From Escherichia phage Lindwurm, in the sequence record NC_134264.1: a DNA stretch of 64,000 bases. One strand, written 5' to 3'. A model generated the notes under the pieces. The model had not been told where the DNA came from, made no database searches, and saw nothing but the letters and a program-made list of their open reading frames with translations. How positions within the stretch are numbered: position 1 is the first letter of the stretch; each line of letters starts with the position of its first letter. Shown one piece after another: positions 47,237 to 62,002 of the stretch. A program made the position numbers and the translations under genes.

Positions 47237-47629
47237 TCATTCATCATTTAATCCCGGAACATAGATCCCAACACGGTTTAATTGTTCTTTAGCTTCTTTG
47301 AGAATATCTGGAGTGTACTCCCAAATATCATCTTCCACCTGTAAAAGATGGGGCGAACAACCATCATCCGGCACACGACATATGGCCAAACCACGTGGAT
47401 GGAACAAAGAGAAGTTTAGGGCAACAATCAAGCCCATAGCAGACAATTCATTCCAATCCAATTCCCATTCCCCCGCGTAGCCGGATAGGAAAACACCAAC
47501 ACAGGGATCATCTGTTTGCTGCTCAGGAAAAGTGAAGGAGGCTTGTCTTACCCCCAACCAACGTTGTAGCAGCTTCTCCGCACGTTTCACCAAACTAGGG
47601 TCAATCTGACGCCAATATACTTGTTCCAT
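47237..47629 (-). CDS. hypothetical protein, paralog A (130 aa)
   Basis: Paralogous to 47639..48067 (PCVGVFLSGYAGEWELDW...MGLIVALNF vs PCIGLIVQVEEDLEEIVGWKELDEMGLVFALNY). Confidence 0.55.
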   Translation of the reverse strand: MEQVYWRQIDPSLVKRAEKLLQRWLGVRQASFTFPEQQTDDPCVGVFLSGYAGEWELDWNELSAMGLIVALNFSLFHPRGLAICRVPDDGCSPHLLQVEDDIWEYTPDILKEAKEQLNRVGIYVPGLNDE

Positions 47630-47638
47630 TATGCCTCC

Positions 47639-48067
47639 TTAGGCAGTTAAACCTGGGATCATATACCCGAAACGTCGAAGTTTCTGAATCCCCTCATTTA
47701 CTTCTTCCGGTGAGTAAGACCAACCATAACGTTCATTAATCTGAAAACCAGGAGATTCACTAGTTTTATAGTTAACAACTAGGCGATGCTTAGCAGGCAT
47801 AAACAGCTTATAGTTTAACGCAAAAACTAAGCCCATTTCGTCTAACTCTTTCCAGCCCACAATCTCTTCAAGATCCTCCTCTACCTGAACAATTAAACCA
47901 ATACAGGGAGCCTCATCAATATCATCTTTAAAAGCAAAGGAGATTTCGTTATTCTCACACCATATTTTCAAAGAGTTAATAGCCTCATTATACAGGCTAG
48001 CCGGGAGAGTACGCCAAAAGTTAACTAAAATTGGGTTAGCTTCTTTAGAGAATACATTATTGAACAT
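47639..48067 (-). CDS. hypothetical protein, paralog B (142 aa)
   Basis: Tandem paralog of 47237..47629; C-terminal RFGYMIPGLT vs RVGIYVPGLN. Confidence 0.55.
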   Translation of the reverse strand: MFNNVFSKEANPILVNFWRTLPASLYNEAINSLKIWCENNEISFAFKDDIDEAPCIGLIVQVEEDLEEIVGWKELDEMGLVFALNYKLFMPAKHRLVVNYKTSESPGFQINERYGWSYSPEEVNEGIQKLRRFGYMIPGLTA

Positions 48068-48069
48068 AT

Positions 48070-48582
48070 TTACACCTTAAATTGTTGCAAGGATTTACAC
48101 ATTTCAAGATTTGGGCTAAATTCTAGCATATAGCTAACAGCTTTTAAATCTTGAAGATTTATCCCAGTCCTACCGTTGACTATAACCGTTGGATACTGAT
48201 ACATCATAGCACCCGCATCATCAAGCACACACCAATGTTTGAGCTTATGCTTTTCAACGAAGCGAAGAACAGAATTACCCCTAGATAATCCACCCCCAGT
48301 AAAATCCGTTGTACCAAGAAAACGATCGATAAGACCTAATCCGGTCATAATCTGAATGTTCTCCATCTCATTTCTGACAGAGAACCAAGATGATACTCCA
48401 ACAATCATTATTGGAGAAGGACGAATAAAGTCCTGAAAAGCCTTGAGAAGCGGTTTGAAAACCCAATCACTTCCAAAGAAAATCTTTTCATCATCAGGCG
48501 CATGATATTGGGAGATGCTCGAATTGAGCACCCCATCAATGTCTAGAAAAATAATTGGAGTATTACTTATTTCCTGACACAT
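48070..48582 (-). CDS. HAD-superfamily hydrolase (possible nucleotidase/phosphatase)
   Basis: HAD motif I FLDIDGVLN near N-terminus; ~170 aa. Confidence 0.6.
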   Translation of the reverse strand: MCQEISNTPIIFLDIDGVLNSSISQYHAPDDEKIFFGSDWVFKPLLKAFQDFIRPSPIMIVGVSSWFSVRNEMENIQIMTGLGLIDRFLGTTDFTGGGLSRGNSVLRFVEKHKLKHWCVLDDAGAMMYQYPTVIVNGRTGINLQDLKAVSYMLEFSPNLEMCKSLQQFKV

Positions 48583-49378
48583 AAGGTCTACCCTCTAAAT
48601 GAGCTTCTACACGAGCAATAAAATCAGGATCACTGAAAGCATCTACCGCACCTTTACTCCAGTAAGGGATACCGCGTTCTTCCAGCTGGTACATCTCACT
48701 ACGAGTCATACCTTGATAGCTCGGTTCCGCCGCTAGGGCACTATCATAGTAGTTAACAACCATTAGCTTGGCAGCAGTCAAATTAAGAACAGGAAATAAT
48801 TCCCAGTAGAAGTTAATTACTTGGTTAGAGCAACCAACCACAACGATCATATCTTGACTGGTAATACCATCAAAAACATTGTACATTTCTGCGTACGCTG
48901 GAGCATGCTCCCCAAAAAAGATTACATTAGGTTTAACCCATTTATAATCGTCTGGATCAATAGAATTGTACCCTACATCAATAATCCGTTTATTGCTACT
49001 ATTGTAGCTATCAGCTACAACAACCTCTTTTAAATATCCGTGAATGTGCAGAATGTCACTATGTGGAACGCCAGCACGCTCAATAAGGTCATCAACGTTG
49101 GTAGTCAAGTTTACTACTTGGCCTGGATATTGTTTATACCATTCACCAATACGCAAATGCGCAAGATTGGGTTCAACAGTTTTTAGCTCTTCACGACGCT
49201 TGTTGTAAAACATATGGGTTTTATGATAAAAATTACCACGAAAGGCATGAATATTACATACCTCTTCTAGATCATAATCATCCCACAATGCTTTACCGCT
49301 AGCAGTATCAGTACGAAAAGCTCGTACACCACTTTCAACACTCAAACCTGCACCACTAATAATAATTAATCTACGCAT
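48563..49378 (-). CDS. Sir2-like (sirtuin family) protein lacking the zinc-ribbon module
   Basis: GAGLSVESGVRAFR, TTNVDDL, HIHG, PNVIFFGE, VVVGCS motifs; no CxxC pairs. Confidence 0.75.
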   Translation of the reverse strand: MRRLIIISGAGLSVESGVRAFRTDTASGKALWDDYDLEEVCNIHAFRGNFYHKTHMFYNKRREELKTVEPNLAHLRIGEWYKQYPGQVVNLTTNVDDLIERAGVPHSDILHIHGYLKEVVVADSYNSSNKRIIDVGYNSIDPDDYKWVKPNVIFFGEHAPAYAEMYNVFDGITSQDMIVVVGCSNQVINFYWELFPVLNLTAAKLMVVNYYDSALAAEPSYQGMTRSEMYQLEERGIPYWSKGAVDAFSDPDFIARVEAHLEGRPYVSGNK

Positions 49379-56021: not shown

Positions 56022-57167
56022 ATGACTACTTTACTAAACCTGAATTGGGATCATACTAACGCTGACCTTTTCCTGGGAGATTCTCTCGGTATCGCAGATT
56101 ATGTACGTGTAGCACATCCAGAACTAGAGCGTCTGGCACTTCTGCAACGCTCTCAATTTTGGACTGAAACTGAAATCAGTCTGGAAGCAGATAAGAAACA
56201 ATGGCCTAATCTCCCACGGGAAATTCAGGAAATTACACTCCTGAACTTAGCCTGGCAGACTCAAACAGATTCCTTTATCAGTCGTGCTCCTGAAGCAGCT
56301 ATTATGCCGCTTGTAAGTCGTCCAGAATTGGAAGGTATGCTCAAGCAGTGGAGCTACTTCGAAGATCTGCATAGTCGTGCTTATAGCAATATTATTCGTA
56401 ATGTGCTAACTGATCCAGCAGAATTTATTGATTCTGTAACCAAAAACCAAGAAGCATTCGCACGCATCGCTGATTCTGTTGAACTATTCGATGAACTGTA
56501 CCAGTTAGGTCAGTATTTCATCGCAGTACGCGATCATCGTGGCGACAATACATATCCAGAAACTGAGTTCCCTGAAGTTAAACGTGAAACTCAGGCTAAG
56601 CTATTAGATGCTTACTTTGCGATCTACGGTCTGGAAGCAATGCAGTTTTACGCATCCTTTGCATGTACCTTTGCACTAGCAGAGAACGATATTCTGCAAG
56701 GTATTGCTAAAAATCTGCAATTAATCGCTAAAGATGAAGCTCTGCACACTCAGATGTCCAAAGCAATCATCCAGATTATGTTCCAGCAGTTTGACAAAGA
56801 TCTGGTGGATGAAGCAGTGGCTAAAGCACCAGCACAGCTCCTGAAAACTCTGAAAACTGAAATTGAATGGGGTCATTTCATTTTCAAAGGTCGTAGTCTG
56901 ATTGGCTTGAATGCAGAACTTCTAGAAGAATATCTGTACTTTGTGGGGCGTAATGCGTTTATGCACATTGGTGTAGAATGGCCTAGTCATTTACCAGTAA
57001 TCACCAAAAACCCTATTCCGTGGATCATGAACTGGTTGGATACCACTTCTTTACAGCCTGCTCCACAAGAAATCCAGATTGGTGCAGCCTACCGTGTAGG
57101 TCAGGTAACTGAGACCTCTACGGATACTCTAAAAGATCTGGGCAATGAATTTGGAGATTTCTTATGA
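56022..57167 (+). CDS. nrdB: ribonucleotide reductase class Ia small subunit
   Basis: Di-iron ligand motifs (DEALH, FACTFALAE), position after nrdA. Confidence 0.9.
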   Translation: MTTLLNLNWDHTNADLFLGDSLGIADYVRVAHPELERLALLQRSQFWTETEISLEADKKQWPNLPREIQEITLLNLAWQTQTDSFISRAPEAAIMPLVSRPELEGMLKQWSYFEDLHSRAYSNIIRNVLTDPAEFIDSVTKNQEAFARIADSVELFDELYQLGQYFIAVRDHRGDNTYPETEFPEVKRETQAKLLDAYFAIYGLEAMQFYASFACTFALAENDILQGIAKNLQLIAKDEALHTQMSKAIIQIMFQQFDKDLVDEAVAKAPAQLLKTLKTEIEWGHFIFKGRSLIGLNAELLEEYLYFVGRNAFMHIGVEWPSHLPVITKNPIPWIMNWLDTTSLQPAPQEIQIGAAYRVGQVTETSTDTLKDLGNEFGDFL

Positions 57168-57697: not shown

Positions 57698-58536
57698 TGC
57701 AACAATATTTAAAAATTCTAACAGATGTAATTTTACTGGGTGAACCACGTAACGATCGTACAGGGACAGGCACGGTTTCAATTTTTGATTCCTATGCTAA
57801 GTTCGACCTACGTGAAGGATTTCCCGCCGTAACCACTAAACGTCTAGCTTGGAAATCAGTAGTTGGAGAACTCCTATGGTTTTTATCTGGATCTACAAAT
57901 CTCCATGATCTGCGAGTATTCACATTTGGGCGTGACGAAGGACAGTGGACTATCTGGACTCCAAATTATGAAGACCAAGCTATAAGTATGGGCTATGACA
58001 ACGGTAATCTAGGACCAGTATATGGTAAACAGTGGCGTAACTTTGGCGGACGAGATCAGATTCTAGAACTCATTGAGGGTCTCAAGAATAATCCACATGG
58101 TCGTAGACACCTAGTATCTGCATGGAACGTAGCTGAACTGGATAAGATGGCATTACCACCATGTCACTATGGTTTCCAATGTTACGTAAGTAATGATGGA
58201 TACTTAGACCTTAAATGGACACAACGTTCTGTAGACTGTTTTCTAGGCCTACCTTTCAATATTGCTAGTTATGCTTTATTAACACATATCCTAGCAAAAT
58301 TGACTGGATTAAAACCTCGTTATCTCATCTTTAGTGGTGGAGATACACATATCTACAGTGATCATATAGAGCAAGTAGAGGAGCAAATGAAACGTAAACC
58401 ACGTCCTTTGCCAACTCTAGTAATGCCAGAGTTTGTAGATCTCTATGATTTATTAGAGAATAATACTGCGGCTTGGTCTTTCAAGCTGGAAGGGTATGAT
58501 CCGCATCCAGCTCTTAAAGCTAAAATGTCCTCTTAA
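57697..58536 (+). CDS. thyA: thymidylate synthase
   Basis: NDRTGTGT, LLWFLSG, catalytic PPCH motif. Confidence 0.9.
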   Translation: MQQYLKILTDVILLGEPRNDRTGTGTVSIFDSYAKFDLREGFPAVTTKRLAWKSVVGELLWFLSGSTNLHDLRVFTFGRDEGQWTIWTPNYEDQAISMGYDNGNLGPVYGKQWRNFGGRDQILELIEGLKNNPHGRRHLVSAWNVAELDKMALPPCHYGFQCYVSNDGYLDLKWTQRSVDCFLGLPFNIASYALLTHILAKLTGLKPRYLIFSGGDTHIYSDHIEQVEEQMKRKPRPLPTLVMPEFVDLYDLLENNTAAWSFKLEGYDPHPALKAKMSS

Positions 58537-58542
58537 CTTAAG

Positions 58543-58567
58543 TAGCCCTTCGGGGCTATTATATTTG
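58543..58567 (+). terminator. rho-independent terminator after thyA (UUCG loop)
   Basis: TAGCCC-TTCG-GGGCTA then T-rich tract. Confidence 0.7.
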
Positions 58568-58576
58568 AAATTGTAC

Positions 58577-58606
58577 TTGCTTATTAAGTACAATTTCAAA
58601 TATAAT
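58577..58606 (+). promoter_or_regulatory. sigma70-like promoter (TTGCTT-18-TATAAT) embedded in a 12-bp-arm palindrome
   Basis: GAAATTGTACTT gcttatt AAGTACAATTTC spans 58567..58597 and overlaps the -35 element. Confidence 0.6.
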
Positions 58607-58635
58607 ATACTCAATAAGTACAAAAGGATAATAAA

Positions 58636-58698
58636 ATGAGTAGAGAAATTGAATTAGAACAAGCCCTTCTGAATTTACTCCAATTACTTGCAGGGTGA
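58636..58698 (+). CDS. short leader ORF (20 aa) with strong RBS; +1-frame ORF overlaps its 3' end
   Basis: AAAAGGATAATAAAATG with promoter upstream; stop TGA at 58696-58698. Confidence 0.3.
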   Translation: MSREIELEQALLNLLQLLAG

Positions 58699-59020
58699 TA
58701 AAGAAACTATTACTAAGGAACAGGTATTATTAATACTAGACTCTATCACTTCTAAATTCAGGACTTTAGAAGACTACTACTCTGTAGGCAATGGAGATGA
58801 GAAGGTAGAGTTATGTCTAAATCTCCTAGAAGATATGGGTTGGGATGAGGAAGATCAAGTAGGATATTTAGGTATATCTACAGAAATTCTAGAAAATACA
58901 GAGCATGAAAATATACTTGAAGTAAAGAGCAGAAGTGCTATTCGGTATAATACTTATGGTACAGGTATTACAGGAATAAAAGCATTACTTAGTATAGATA
59001 TAGGATGGTTAGATGAATAA
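58688..59020 (+). CDS. hypothetical protein (110 aa; TTG start in track; frame open from 58673)
   Basis: No independent RBS; may be expressed by +1 frameshift from leader ORF or may be a frameshifted gene. Confidence 0.4.
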   Translation: MQGDKETITKEQVLLILDSITSKFRTLEDYYSVGNGDEKVELCLNLLEDMGWDEEDQVGYLGISTEILENTEHENILEVKSRSAIRYNTYGTGITGIKALLSIDIGWLDE

Positions 59021-59561
59021 AAAGTTACCTAGCCAAGAAAGATTAAAAGAATTATTAATCTATGATCCAGATACCGGTATATTTACTAATAAGGTAAGTC
59101 GTGGTAGGGGAGGAAAAGCAGGTTCACCCGCTGGATACCTAAGAAAAGATGGCTATATAACTATTAAGATAGATAAAATAGATTATTTAGCACATAGACT
59201 AGCCTTTCTATACATGACAGGATCAATACCAGATTTAATAGACCACAAAAATAGGATTAGGTCAGATAATAGGTGGATAAACCTAAGAGAAGCTACAAGC
59301 CAGTCTAATAATAGAAACTGTACCGCATCGAGTAAATCTGGATATCTAGGTGTACACTGGAACAAACAATTACAGAAATGGCAAGTACAGGTGATTGATA
59401 ATAAAGGTAAAAATATTTATGGGGGTGTTTTTGACTACTTAGACCTAGAAAGTGCGGTCATAAAGGCTAATGAACTGAGAAAAACACTTCATGGTAGCGA
59501 AGCAGTTATAGAAGATTTCTATACTAACTATTACCCACCAGTAGAGGAACTTAATAAGTGA
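59013..59561 (+). CDS. HNH homing endonuclease with AP2-like C-terminal DNA-binding region
   Basis: YDPDTG...FLYMTGSIPDLIDHKNRIRSDNRWINLREAT; GYLGVHW...KWQ; between thyA and rnhA. Confidence 0.8.
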   Translation: MNKKLPSQERLKELLIYDPDTGIFTNKVSRGRGGKAGSPAGYLRKDGYITIKIDKIDYLAHRLAFLYMTGSIPDLIDHKNRIRSDNRWINLREATSQSNNRNCTASSKSGYLGVHWNKQLQKWQVQVIDNKGKNIYGGVFDYLDLESAVIKANELRKTLHGSEAVIEDFYTNYYPPVEELNK

Positions 59562-60034
59562 GCGTTTTCCACATTTACACAGATGGTGCTTGTAAGTCTA
59601 ACCCAGGTCCAGGTGCTTGGGGTTTTATTGTCTATGATGATAACGACGATCGTTTAGGTTCTAAATCTGGTTATAATCCTAAAACTACAAATAATGAGAT
59701 GGAACTCACAGCTATTGTAGAAGCTCTACGTTGGTCTGTTAAAAAAGATAATAGACCAATTGCTATCTATACTGACTCTGCTTATTGCAAAAACGGCATG
59801 GAAAGTTGGATGTTTTCTTGGCAAAGGAAAGGCTGGAAGAAAGCAGATGGTGAAGTTCCTCTTAATCTAGAACTTTGGCAGGAAGCATTTAAATTAACAC
59901 AGCAGTATATCAACTTTCATAATACTAATCCTACCTTTATTAAGGTTAAAGGACATTCTGGTATTAGTGGTAATGAAGCTGTAGATGCATTGTGTAATAC
60001 TGTTATTACTGAGCAAGAACTTGCCGAGATGTGA
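59558..60034 (+). CDS. rnhA: ribonuclease H (RNase HI-type)
   Basis: YTDGACKSNPGPGAWG, ELTAI, YTDS, HSGISGNEAVDAL motifs. Confidence 0.85.
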   Translation: MSVFHIYTDGACKSNPGPGAWGFIVYDDNDDRLGSKSGYNPKTTNNEMELTAIVEALRWSVKKDNRPIAIYTDSAYCKNGMESWMFSWQRKGWKKADGEVPLNLELWQEAFKLTQQYINFHNTNPTFIKVKGHSGISGNEAVDALCNTVITEQELAEM

Positions 60035-60054
60035 TAAATAAATTAAAAATTTTC

Positions 60055-60083
60055 TTGCTTAAAGCCCTCTAATTTAGTATAAT
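60055..60083 (+). promoter_or_regulatory. sigma70-like promoter of small-protein/NADAR cassette (TTGCTT-17-TATAAT)
   Basis: Direct read; inverted repeat AAAGCCCTC (60061..60069) / GAGGGCTTT (60102..60110) brackets -10 and RBS. Confidence 0.7.
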
Positions 60084-60110
60084 ATTCGTATTGAAAGTGA
60101 GGAGGGCTTT

Positions 60111-60395
60111 ATGCGGATTTATAACTCAAATTCATTAGGATTTAAACCATTGAGAAAACGTGCACAATCACCTCGTCAAATAAGAAAGGCTAATATTGGT
60201 GAGCCAGAGACACGACTTCCACCTCCTCCAGAACAACGTTTAGTTTATCTGGACGAAGAATTAGCGGAACGCGAAAGAAAAGCTCAAGAAGAGATTGAGC
60301 GTAAGAAAATGTGTACTGCTCCAGCCTACTCCAAAGGGGCTTATCAGTATATCTATACAGCCGAGGAGGCTAAAGATGCGGGGCGTAAAAAATGA
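60111..60395 (+). CDS. hypothetical basic/Pro-rich protein (94 aa), coupled to NADAR gene
   Basis: Promoter 60055..60083 and GAGGAG RBS; stop overlaps NADAR start (ATGA). Confidence 0.5.
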   Translation: MRIYNSNSLGFKPLRKRAQSPRQIRKANIGEPETRLPPPPEQRLVYLDEELAERERKAQEEIERKKMCTAPAYSKGAYQYIYTAEEAKDAGRKK

Positions 60396-60841
60396 AGATT
60401 ACCGAATTTAAAGGTACTTATAGTTTCTTATCTAACTTTTATTTATCACCAATCACTTTCGAATACCTAAACGAGATATGGCATGCTGATACTGTAGAAC
60501 ATGCTTTTCAGGCTATGAAATCCGACCAAAAAGATGATGTAGCTCATGTACTGCGCTCCCTAAATGCAGGAGTTGCCAAACGTAGAGGACGTAAATTAAC
60601 TCTACGCTCTGACTGGGATAAGGTAAAAGATGATGTAATGCTAGAGCTTTTACGGTTAAAGTTTGCAATACCTGATTTGAGAGACAAACTGTTAGCAACA
60701 AAAAATGCAACTTTGATCGAAGGAAATACCTGGGGAGATACATATTGGGGTGTTTGTCGAGGCATCGGGGATAATACTCTAGGTGTTCTTTTGATGCAGG
60801 TAAGGTCTGAAATTAAAAGAAGCTTACAGTTAATAAATTAA
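60392..60841 (+). CDS. NADAR (YbiA-like, DUF1768) family protein
   Basis: FLSNF, EHAFQAMK, KFA..LRDKLLAT, YWGVCRGIGDNTLGVLLM motifs align with E. coli YbiA as recalled. Confidence 0.75.
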   Translation: MKITEFKGTYSFLSNFYLSPITFEYLNEIWHADTVEHAFQAMKSDQKDDVAHVLRSLNAGVAKRRGRKLTLRSDWDKVKDDVMLELLRLKFAIPDLRDKLLATKNATLIEGNTWGDTYWGVCRGIGDNTLGVLLMQVRSEIKRSLQLIN

Positions 60842-60849
60842 AAATTCAT

Positions 60850-60878
60850 TTGCTAAACGCTTCAAATTCTCGTATAAT
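60850..60878 (+). promoter_or_regulatory. sigma70-like promoter (TTGCTA-17-TATAAT) with conserved leader
   Basis: Leader ACTTCATAAATTGATAAACAAAAAGGAAAACAAATA before ATG 60917. Confidence 0.75.
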
Positions 60879-60916
60879 ATACTTCATAAATTGATAAACA
60901 AAAAGGAAAACAAATA

Positions 60917-61432
60917 ATGGCTAAGCAGAAAAACGCAAAAACTCAAGCAGCTCCGGCAGTTAAAACTTTCCCGCAGACCGAGGCTAATCGCAAAGCTCGC
61001 CTGGAACGTCACCTGCGTAAGCATCCTACCGATACCCAGGCTGCGCAAGCACTGAATAATCCGGCTCCGATTCGTAAGAAGCCTAAAGCTAAAAATGCCG
61101 CCCGTAAATCCTACAAAATGGTTATGTATGTAGAAAATTACGGACACAAATCTGTCCCAGTTTCCCTGAGCTTCAACGCTGGGGCTGAATTGTTCTCTCG
61201 TAATGGTATGTCTATGAAAGACTATGAGAAGGCAGTTAACCAGAAGCGTAAACCAACAGCAGATGTATTGCGTGATACTCGTGGACAGTTTGGTTCTGTT
61301 AAGCCAAATATCCTTGGCGTAGAGTATAGTAAAGATAATGTTCGTGCTCTGTGTTACGGTGTAGGCATTAAATTCACTGGTGATTCTGCTCGTAAATCTG
61401 CTAAACCAGCTCGCAAGCGTAAAGCGAAGTAA
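60917..61432 (+). CDS. hypothetical highly basic protein (171 aa)
   Basis: Strong promoter and conserved leader; Lys/Arg-rich termini. Confidence 0.5.
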   Translation: MAKQKNAKTQAAPAVKTFPQTEANRKARLERHLRKHPTDTQAAQALNNPAPIRKKPKAKNAARKSYKMVMYVENYGHKSVPVSLSFNAGAELFSRNGMSMKDYEKAVNQKRKPTADVLRDTRGQFGSVKPNILGVEYSKDNVRALCYGVGIKFTGDSARKSAKPARKRKAK

Positions 61433-61495
61433 CAGGTAAATAGGGGCGAAAGCCCCTACAATCGACTAATTCTCTAACTAATCAAGGATATTTTT

Positions 61496-61711
61496 ATGTT
61501 CTCTAAGAAACCACGTTCTGTTACTGAAATCGTTGCTTCCTTTACCACTATCACTGATGAGCTTCAAGCTCGTATTGAGGCTGATCAAAAAATCGCTGCT
61601 GATATTCAGAAACAGCAGGAAGAACTCGCTTTAAAGTTGGCTGAAACCAACAAGAGTGAAAAATCTGCCCAAACTATTAAGGAAAATATCCTTAAACTGC
61701 TGGGCAAGTGA
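61496..61711 (+). CDS. hypothetical coiled-coil protein (71 aa)
   Basis: AAGGA RBS. Confidence 0.4.
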   Translation: MFSKKPRSVTEIVASFTTITDELQARIEADQKIAADIQKQQEELALKLAETNKSEKSAQTIKENILKLLGK

Positions 61712-61752
61712 TTTAGATCAGGGGGCGAAAGCCTCTCTTATTTGGAGAAACT

Positions 61753-61974
61753 ATGCGTAATTTTGTAGCAAAGAATGATTTTAACCGTGCTAGCACCCAT
61801 AAGTCAGCTAGGGATTATACACGACTTTCTAGTCATGAGGTAATGGATCTAGCAGTGGATGAGTTAGACTTAGATGACCTCTATATGGAAGAAAACTGGG
61901 ATGTCAGTGAGGATATGCTTCCTGGTTTTAAAGACCCCAAGAAGTGGGAGTCTATTAAAGAGACAGCTCTTTAA
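61753..61974 (+). CDS. hypothetical protein (73 aa)
   Basis: GGAG RBS. Confidence 0.4.
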   Translation: MRNFVAKNDFNRASTHKSARDYTRLSSHEVMDLAVDELDLDDLYMEENWDVSEDMLPGFKDPKKWESIKETAL

Positions 61975-62002
61975 TAGTTTTCTACACAATAAAGGATAAG
62001 TT

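Follow-up and report, generated by a model that had tools for sequence, protein, structure and literature searches.

In the genome of Escherichia phage Lindwurm (NC_134264.1), two short genes that share the four nucleotides ATGA stand between rnh and a DUF7022 gene, the first encoding a 94-aa basic protein and the second a 149-aa protein with the motifs of the NADAR family. What does this NADAR protein do for the phage, and is the small protein its partner? We addressed both questions in a stretch of 64,000 nucleotides from this phage, which we call the window. An earlier note, made from the sequence alone, had read the pair as a two-gene cassette that is plausibly a counter-defence or DNA-repair module, with reversal of guanine ADP-ribosylation by DarT-type toxins among the activities of NADAR enzymes, and the elements on which it built, namely the promoter, the GAGGAGGG ribosome-binding site, the two open reading frames and the ATGA overlap, were all present (Table 1).

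Genomic context of the locus

When positions 59500-61500 were compared with phage sequences by megablast, 440 phage records were matched, all of them T5-like (Demerecviridae, Markadamsvirinae), with Shigella phage SSP1 as the best full-length match (96.9%). The source phage of the window is T5-like (Tequintavirus), and the local gene order reads nrdB - frd - thy - hypothetical - HNH - rnh - small gene - NADAR - DUF7022. Both the 94-aa and the 149-aa reading frames are real genes, kept across hundreds of phage genomes. Two antisense reading frames within the NADAR gene (60513..60743 and 60544..60765, minus strand) were dismissed, as nothing was found in their support, and an Rfam scan of both strands of 58500-62000 returned sub-threshold chance matches only.

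Table 1. Features of the locus and of the Sir2 operon, in window coordinates.
Feature	Position	Strand	Basis
Two DUF7415 genes	47237..48067	-	Sir2 operon
HAD_SAK_2 gene	48070..48582	-	Sir2 operon
SIR2 gene	48563..49378	-	Sir2 operon
AT-rich ATAAATTAAAAATT, copy 1 (14-bp direct repeat), just upstream of the -35	60038..60051	+	repeat search
Sigma-70 early promoter of the small gene: -35 TTGCTT (60055-60060), 17-nt spacer, -10 TATAAT (60078-60083)	60055..60083	+	sequence, T5 comparison
Shine-Dalgarno GAGGAGGG, 4 nt before the ATG at 60111	60099..60106	+	sequence
Small gene, 94-aa basic protein, T5.090 homologue, phrog_4593	60111..60395	+	ORF list, tblastn, PHROGs
ATGA stop/start overlap of small gene and NADAR	60392..60395	+	sequence, ORF list
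NADAR gene, very probably of the adfN type, 149 aa	60392..60841	+	Pfam, tblastn, structure model, conservation
13-bp direct repeat AAAAGATGATGTA, copy 1, inside the NADAR gene; left deletion endpoint	60529..60541	+	repeat search
13-bp direct repeat AAAAGATGATGTA, copy 2; right deletion endpoint	60625..60637	+	repeat search
ATAAATTAAAAATT, copy 2, overlapping the NADAR stop codon; marks the right insertion junction relative to T5	60833..60846	+	repeat search
Promoter of the DUF7022 gene (T5.089 homologue): TTGCTA, 17 nt, TATAAT; T5 P-H207	60850..60878	+	scan, T5 comparison

The second gene encodes an orphan NADAR of predicted YbiA type

The family assignment of the earlier note was borne out. 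Residues 9-142 of the 149-aa protein matched the Pfam NADAR profile PF08719 (DUF1768) with 79 bits (E=6e-22; gathering cut-off 35.1), and the motifs FLSNF, EHAFQAMK and YWGVCRGIGDNTLGVLLM were all found in it. A phmmer search of PDB sequences retrieved E. coli YbiA (2B3W, E=3e-15) and the NADAR 8BAU (E=7e-7). An AlphaFold model built with 45 homologues as input reached a pLDDT of 97.1 and a pTM of 0.91. When this model was submitted to Foldseek, YbiA was recovered as the closest solved structure (2B3W; TM 0.82, 37% identity), along with the Phytophthora NADAR-ADP-ribose complex 8BAU (TM 0.78); the match to the DarT1-associated Geobacter NADAR 8BAT was weak (TM 0.52, E=0.41). The protein is thus predicted to adopt the fold of the NADAR superfamily.

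In PnNADAR, catalysis and ADP-ribose binding have been assigned to E43, K50, E125, R79, W89, R93, D130 and W133 (Schuller et al. 2023, PMC11543638), and the catalytic Glu/Lys of the E-x6-K motif correspond to E43/K50 in PnNADAR and to E88/K95 in E. coli C7 (residue roles: PMC11543638). HMMER alignments point to E36, K43 and E110 of the window protein as the predicted catalytic residues, equivalent to E43, K50 and E125 of PnNADAR, and to R67, W75, K79, D116 and W119 as predicted ADP-ribose contacts. E36 and K43 lie within EHAFQAMK, aligned to the E-x6-K motif of both 8BAU and 2B3W, and E110 lies in LIEGNTW, which aligns with LVE of YbiA and LYE of Pn. Across the 45 homologues E36, K43, E110, W114, D116 and W119 were invariant, and W75 and K79 nearly so. 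Structure prediction and comparison of active sites, both proposed in the earlier note, therefore recovered the NADAR fold and a match to the PnNADAR catalytic residues.

Because a Glu occupies the last-strand position 110, the 149-aa protein is, as judged from its sequence, a NADAR of the YbiA subfamily, neither of the DarG1/BC4488 type (Asp) nor of the T4 gp30.3 type (His). DarG1 (BC4488 subfamily, e.g. Geobacter lovleyi 8BAT) belongs to the same superfamily and performs the same guanine-ADP-ribose hydrolysis, but the window protein has neither an adjacent DarT1 nor an N-terminal extension, and membership among the DarG1 antitoxins was rejected on the lack of a nearby DarT gene, the Glu instead of Asp at position 110 and the TM of only 0.52 to 8BAT. 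Neither a DarT gene nor an ART domain adjoins the NADAR gene, which lies among the genes for RNase H, the T5.090 homologue and DUF7022; it is a phage-encoded orphan in the sense used for AdfN, namely that it has no cognate DarT toxin gene. In GenBank this phage gene bears labels such as 'swarming motility protein' or 'GTP cyclohydrolase II', which were carried over from other annotations and are not findings.

The NADAR protein corresponds to AdfN of Bas32 and Bas33

By tblastn, the window protein was identical at all 149 positions to bas33_0070 of Escherichia phage HildyBeyeler (BASEL phage Bas33) and at 147 of 149 positions (98.7%) to bas32_0066 of Bas32, and protein comparison showed it to be the SSP1 protein as well as the Bas33 protein. 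Two differences, T9A and K104E, both non-catalytic, separate the window and Bas33 protein from the Bas32 NADAR deposited in GenBank. The Bas32 and Bas33 proteins have been called identical (PMC11825919), and the window protein may differ from the published tested construct at these two residues. Between the window and Bas33 the NADAR genes showed 15 synonymous and no non-synonymous codon differences, which indicates strong purifying selection.

Bas32 and Bas33, described by the LeRoux laboratory as 'Markadamsvirinae closely related to T5', encode the NADAR that was named AdfN^Bas32 (bioRxiv PMC11257639; Nat Commun 2025 PMC11825919). On its own, AdfN^Bas32 is enough to neutralise the DarT1 toxin in E. 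coli cells that carry no phage, and on DarTG1 hosts it brings the plaque counts of RB69, T5 and Bas25 back to full titre; it requires no additional phage factor, but it has no effect on DarTG2 and does not reverse the thymidine-ADPr made by DarT2 (PMC11825919). T5 is sensitive to DarTG1 and rescued by AdfN^Bas32 (PMC11825919), and we found no NADAR gene in the T5 genome. The locus order rnh - T5.090 homologue - NADAR - DUF7022 is likewise shared with Bas32 and Bas33; there is no functional difference from AdfN^Bas32, and the window phage has in addition an HNH endonuclease upstream of rnh. Among NADARs, T4 AdfN and others have been shown to be active in vitro; for the window protein we infer glycohydrolase chemistry in vitro. 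A literature search returned no report of the deletion of this NADAR gene in a T5-like phage.

Two further relatives set off the features of this protein. T4 AdfN (gp30.3), like the window NADAR, is a phage orphan NADAR with the E36/K43 pair that counters DarTG1 by guanine de-ADP-ribosylation. However, it is a 208-aa protein with His at the subfamily-defining last-strand position that clusters near DarG1, whereas the window protein is a bare YbiA-type core of 149 aa with Glu (E110). T4 AdfN works well only in T-even infections, whereas the window-type protein needs no phage context (AdfN^Bas32, PMC11825919). E. coli YbiA, in turn, shares the conserved Glu but gave no protection from DarT1 in vivo (PMC11125620), unlike AdfN^Bas32 (PMC11825919).

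We conclude, with high confidence, that the gene for the 149-aa protein is an orphan NADAR gene of the adfN type that counters DarT1, and that it is accessory, inserted between T5.090 and P-H207, and not dependent on the small gene. Host DarT1, of the DarTG1 defence, would attach ADP-ribose to guanine in phage single-stranded DNA, and the NADAR protein, as an antitoxin-like DNA ADP-ribosylglycohydrolase, would strip the ADP-ribose from guanine so that replication can proceed. Counter-defence against DarT-type guanine ADP-ribosylation, as the earlier note had suggested, is correct and has been demonstrated experimentally for AdfN^Bas32, which is 98.7-100% identical (PMC11825919); it is thus already published for the same protein.

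The small gene and the NADAR gene are not an obligate pair

The distribution of the two genes does not agree with the cassette proposed in the earlier note. The 94-aa protein was found by tblastn in 539 records (about 540), 437 of them at ≥80% identity, and the NADAR at ≥95% identity in 94 records; the NADAR gene is accessory, present in roughly one in five (~20%) close T5 relatives. In T5 the order is rnh (T5.091) - promoter - T5.090 - promoter P-H207 - T5.089 (DUF7022), with NADAR absent, and Bas29 and Klebsiella phage Roth50 also carry the small gene and no NADAR. Salmonella phage UTK0009 has a NADAR of 60% identity between rnh and the small gene, i.e. upstream of the latter; this allele is confined to UTK0009 and represents a second, independent insertion. 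In the diverged T5-like contig L008 and the phage-like contig L009, the small-gene homologue overlaps by 4 nt unrelated genes of 71 aa and 129 aa, and no NADAR was found downstream of divergent small-protein homologues. Contig L009 also carries a gp32-family gene. Conversely, the upstream genes that overlap the closest non-T5 relatives of the NADAR (58-61% identity) are small and unrelated, and no T5.090-like gene was found upstream of close NADAR relatives. Overlaps of 4 nt are routine between unrelated neighbours in the window, as for nrdB/frd (57164-57167) and HNH/rnh (59558-59561). Distribution, gene order and the published self-sufficiency of AdfN^Bas32 together rule out an obligate two-gene module.

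The earlier note had also connected the NADAR with the Sir2 operon through ADP-ribose/NAD chemistry. The operon of the window is the equivalent of T5.102-T5.107 and lies ~11 kb from the NADAR gene on the opposite strand. As T5 has this operon without any NADAR, the two are independent and the connection was abandoned.

The small protein is a resident early gene product

T5.090 (92 aa) is 91% identical to the 94-aa protein of the window, which has PPPP at residues 37-40, 21 K+R against 14 D+E and a pI of 9.7, rising to 11.3 in its N-terminal half. When distant homologues (104-152 aa) were aligned with it, conservation was confined to the C-terminal ~45 residues, with the motif EELAERE..AQEEIERKK.CTAPAYSKGAYQYI..GRK. 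The AlphaFold model was of low confidence (pLDDT 68, pTM 0.29) and showed a disordered N-terminal half that precedes a helix at residues 49-66, a hairpin at 70-81 and another, short helix. Searches of Pfam, NCBIfam and PADLOC gave no family match, a Pfam NADase_NGA match of 13.2 bits being noise (cut-off 30.5), and the sole PHROGs result was phrog_4593, of unknown function. A profile of 20 family members retrieved nothing at E≤10 from PDB sequences, and literature searches for 'T5.090' returned unrelated numeric matches only. The small protein is the product of a resident early gene that is conserved and syntenic among T5-like phages and is not NADAR-specific; our best guess is that it folds upon binding a host or nucleic-acid partner.

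Expression of the NADAR gene from the T5.090 transcript

The promoter of the small gene differs by one mismatch from that annotated upstream of T5.090 in NC_005859, and the alignment showed it to be unchanged in Bas33 and Bas29; the Shine-Dalgarno sequence was also unchanged across the three aligned phages. A consensus promoter scan listed the next promoter (60850..60878) but not this one, because TTGCTT agrees with TTGACA at only three of six positions. The NADAR gene has no promoter of its own and is therefore expressed as the second cistron on the early transcript of T5.090; the P-H207-equivalent promoter lies outside the NADAR unit. The sole Shine-Dalgarno-like element near the NADAR start is a weak GGGG at 60380-60383, and translation of the NADAR gene is likely coupled to that of the small gene via the ATGA overlap. 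The protein would thus be made from the T5.090 early transcript, probably through this coupling, and would be produced together with the products of the neighbouring replication genes (rnh, thy, frd, nrd), presumably early in infection.

Anatomy of the insertion, repeats and a decayed allele

The junctions of the insertion were defined by alignment with Bas29 and T5, and place the NADAR gene as an accessory insertion between T5.090 and P-H207. On the left side, homology to Bas29 and T5 spans the small gene and is weaker across its last ~14 codons, where the C-terminus reads IYTAEEAKDAGRKK in the window and VSDEEQAKMVGR in T5. On the right side, homology resumes at about 60838-60842 in the P-H207 region, and the sequence is identical to that of T5 from AAAAATTCATTTGCT onwards. 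The small-gene allele of the window (≥95% identical over 94 aa) was found in 95 records, against 94 for the NADAR; the allele tracks the presence of the NADAR, and the recombination unit therefore extends over about 60350-60842.

The AT-rich repeat ATAAATTAAAAATT occurs twice in the 64-kb window (0.02 matches expected by chance). Its two copies flank the block of small gene plus NADAR, each just upstream of a promoter -35, and belong to repeat family D1, in which promoter regions of 49 nt are 73% identical. In UTK0009 the 3' end of the NADAR gene joins directly onto the ATAAATTAAAAATT motif of the T5.090 promoter. With low confidence, we suggest that exchange may have taken place through such similar AT-rich elements upstream of promoters. 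A different repeat bounds a deletion: a related T5-like contig has a decayed NADAR allele from which 96 bp are missing in frame, with the two copies of AAAAGATGATGTA as endpoints.

Alternative explanations

Could the T5.090-like protein and the NADAR nevertheless form a functional module, in which the basic, disordered protein targets or regulates the hydrolase on phage DNA? The ATGA overlap under one promoter would suit such a module, as would the basic nature of the small protein and the co-variation of its C-terminal allele with the NADAR, although the latter arises because one recombination tract spans the 3' end of the small gene. We regard this module as very unlikely, since most T5-like phages (T5, Bas29 and Roth50 included) have a T5.090 homologue without NADAR, the NADAR is upstream of the small gene in UTK0009, the overlapped downstream slot is taken by unrelated genes in L008 and L009, close NADAR relatives overlap unrelated upstream genes, and AdfN^Bas32 alone is active both in E. 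coli without phage and during infection by RB69 or Bas25 (PMC11825919). A different account of the pairing is that the position after T5.090 is a hotspot at which coupled accessory genes are swapped, perhaps via AT-rich early-promoter elements, or that the small protein tunes AdfN in its native setting. It draws on the small protein with its helix and beta-hairpin motif APAYSKGAYQYI…GRK and on accessory slots occupied by the NADAR, 71-aa and 129-aa genes, and we consider it unlikely.

The substrate of the enzyme could also be other than, or wider than, ADP-ribosylated guanine. A mainly housekeeping role as a YbiA-like riboflavin-intermediate N-glycosidase, or the degradation of soluble ADP-ribose-derived immune signals instead of DNA adducts, would be compatible with E110 and with YbiA as the closest solved structure, and in the Iyer/Aravind survey phage NADARs were proposed to act mainly on soluble ADPr derivatives (PMC9503650). 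NCBIfam TIGR02464 (riboflavin-intermediate N-glycosidase) does match, but its 66.8 bits remain below the equivalog cut-off of 73.7 bits, and no rib gene was found among the genes around the NADAR. Moreover, the same protein directly neutralised DarT1 and DarTG1 in vivo (PMC11825919), and its patchy accessory distribution and decayed allele suit conditional anti-defence use better than core metabolism, so that either substrate assignment appears very unlikely. Possible, albeit doubtful, is a broader spectrum against ADP-ribosyltransferases in which, besides guanine-ADPr, the enzyme would remove cytidine-ADPr or the RNA-base ADPr left by YarT-like and pierisin-like toxins. YbiA-type NADARs act on riboflavin intermediates and remove cytidine-ADP-ribose (PMC12945103), and DarT1 may therefore not be the sole target. 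The antitoxin of the non-DarT ART YarT is itself a YbiA-family NADAR (PMC11125620), and AdfN^Bas32, unlike T4 AdfN, is not restricted to the DNA of its own phage, but its failure to reverse DarT2 thymidine-ADPr speaks against such a spectrum (PMC11825919). An adfN-type NADAR that counters DarT1 thus remains our preferred reading.

Implications for T5-like phages

The enzyme family, the chemistry and the anti-defence role of this exact protein are already published, and we claim no new biology for them. Our additions are modest: we map the insertion against T5, give its prevalence as ~20% in close T5-like phages, describe the second, independent insertion in UTK0009 and the decayed allele, and show that the gene upstream is no partner of the NADAR. 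The correct name for this phage gene is adfN. We predict resistance of this phage, in contrast to T5, to E. coli, Salmonella and Shigella hosts that carry DarTG1, a prediction that would be useful in picking T5-like phages for therapy or biocontrol.

Variation and probable decay of the NADAR gene

The NADAR protein of the window is the same as that of Shigella phage SSP1 and of the BASEL phage Bas33. According to PMC11825919, the NADAR proteins of Bas32 and Bas33 are identical, whereas we observed two residue differences, T9A and K104E, between the deposited sequences of Bas32 (L013 1495-1944) and Bas33 (L002 2501-2950). In a 107-kb T5-like metagenome contig (L014 2501-2854), the NADAR occupying the same slot lacks 32 aa in frame (residues 49-80), including R67, W75 and K79, which are predicted to contact ADP-ribose. 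The deletion is bounded exactly by 13-bp direct repeats, AAAAGATGATGTA, and the L014 gene is probably a decayed allele that arose by repeat-mediated deletion. In GenBank, the same NADAR gene is variously labelled 'swarming motility protein', 'GTP cyclohydrolase II', 'DUF1768 domain-containing protein' or 'hypothetical protein', and small genes adjoining it are wrongly named 'tail length tape-measure protein' or 'tail fibers protein'; these misnamings are annotation-transfer errors.

Coordinates, in the window, of the features discussed
Feature	Position	Strand	Remarks
Sir2 operon	47237-49378	minus	SIR2, HAD_SAK_2, two DUF7415 proteins
HAD_SAK_2	48070..48582	minus	'Swiss Army Knife RNA repair' HAD domain
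SIR2	48563..49378	minus	
HNH_3 homing-endonuclease gene	59013-59561		4-nt overlap with the rnh start
Inverted repeat, upstream arm GCTTAAAGCCCTC	60057-60069		-35/spacer region of the T5.090 promoter
Inverted repeat, downstream arm GAGGGCTTTATGC	60102-60114		Shine-Dalgarno/start region
Direct repeat AAAAGATGATGTA	60529-60541 and 60625-60637		bounds of the L014 deletion

Elements surrounding the NADAR gene, and the Sir2 operon

The HNH_3 gene is present in the window and in SSP1, and none is found at this position in Bas33, Bas32 or T5; its presence or absence upstream of the RNase H gene rnh is a mobile-element polymorphism. At the promoter and start of the T5.090 homologue, the small gene directly upstream of NADAR, lies a 13-nt inverted repeat with 92% complementarity, which is kept in T5 and whose upstream arm should fall outside the transcript. 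Further upstream, the intergenic region downstream of thy contains an AT-rich palindromic stretch (58539-58624), with sub-threshold Rfam hairpin-type matches on both strands and several promoter-like matches overlapping one another. The T5 counterpart of the Sir2 operon is T5.102-T5.107, in which T5.105 bears a Sir2 label in the T5 record whereas its window homologue scores as HAD_SAK_2.

Related NADAR genes in other contexts

A second allele of NADAR, with 60% identity, is found in Salmonella phage UTK0009 (L004 2489-3265), where rnh precedes it and the T5.090 homologue follows. The 3' end of this gene (…AAT TCA GTT GCT TAA, stop included) doubles as part of the T5.090 promoter, providing its -35 (TTGCTT) and its upstream element. 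Seen only in UTK0009, this allele is an independent acquisition at the adjacent intergenic site. Phage-like metagenome contigs L016 (4001-4871) and L015 (4001-4826) encode NADARs that share 58-61% identity with the window protein, each then overlapped by a downstream gene, which in L015 encodes a YAcAr domain and in L016 a macrodomain matching PADLOC DarG (E=2e-22). With its NADAR and macrodomain genes in tandem, L016 appears to carry an anti-DarT1 / anti-DarT2-type module.
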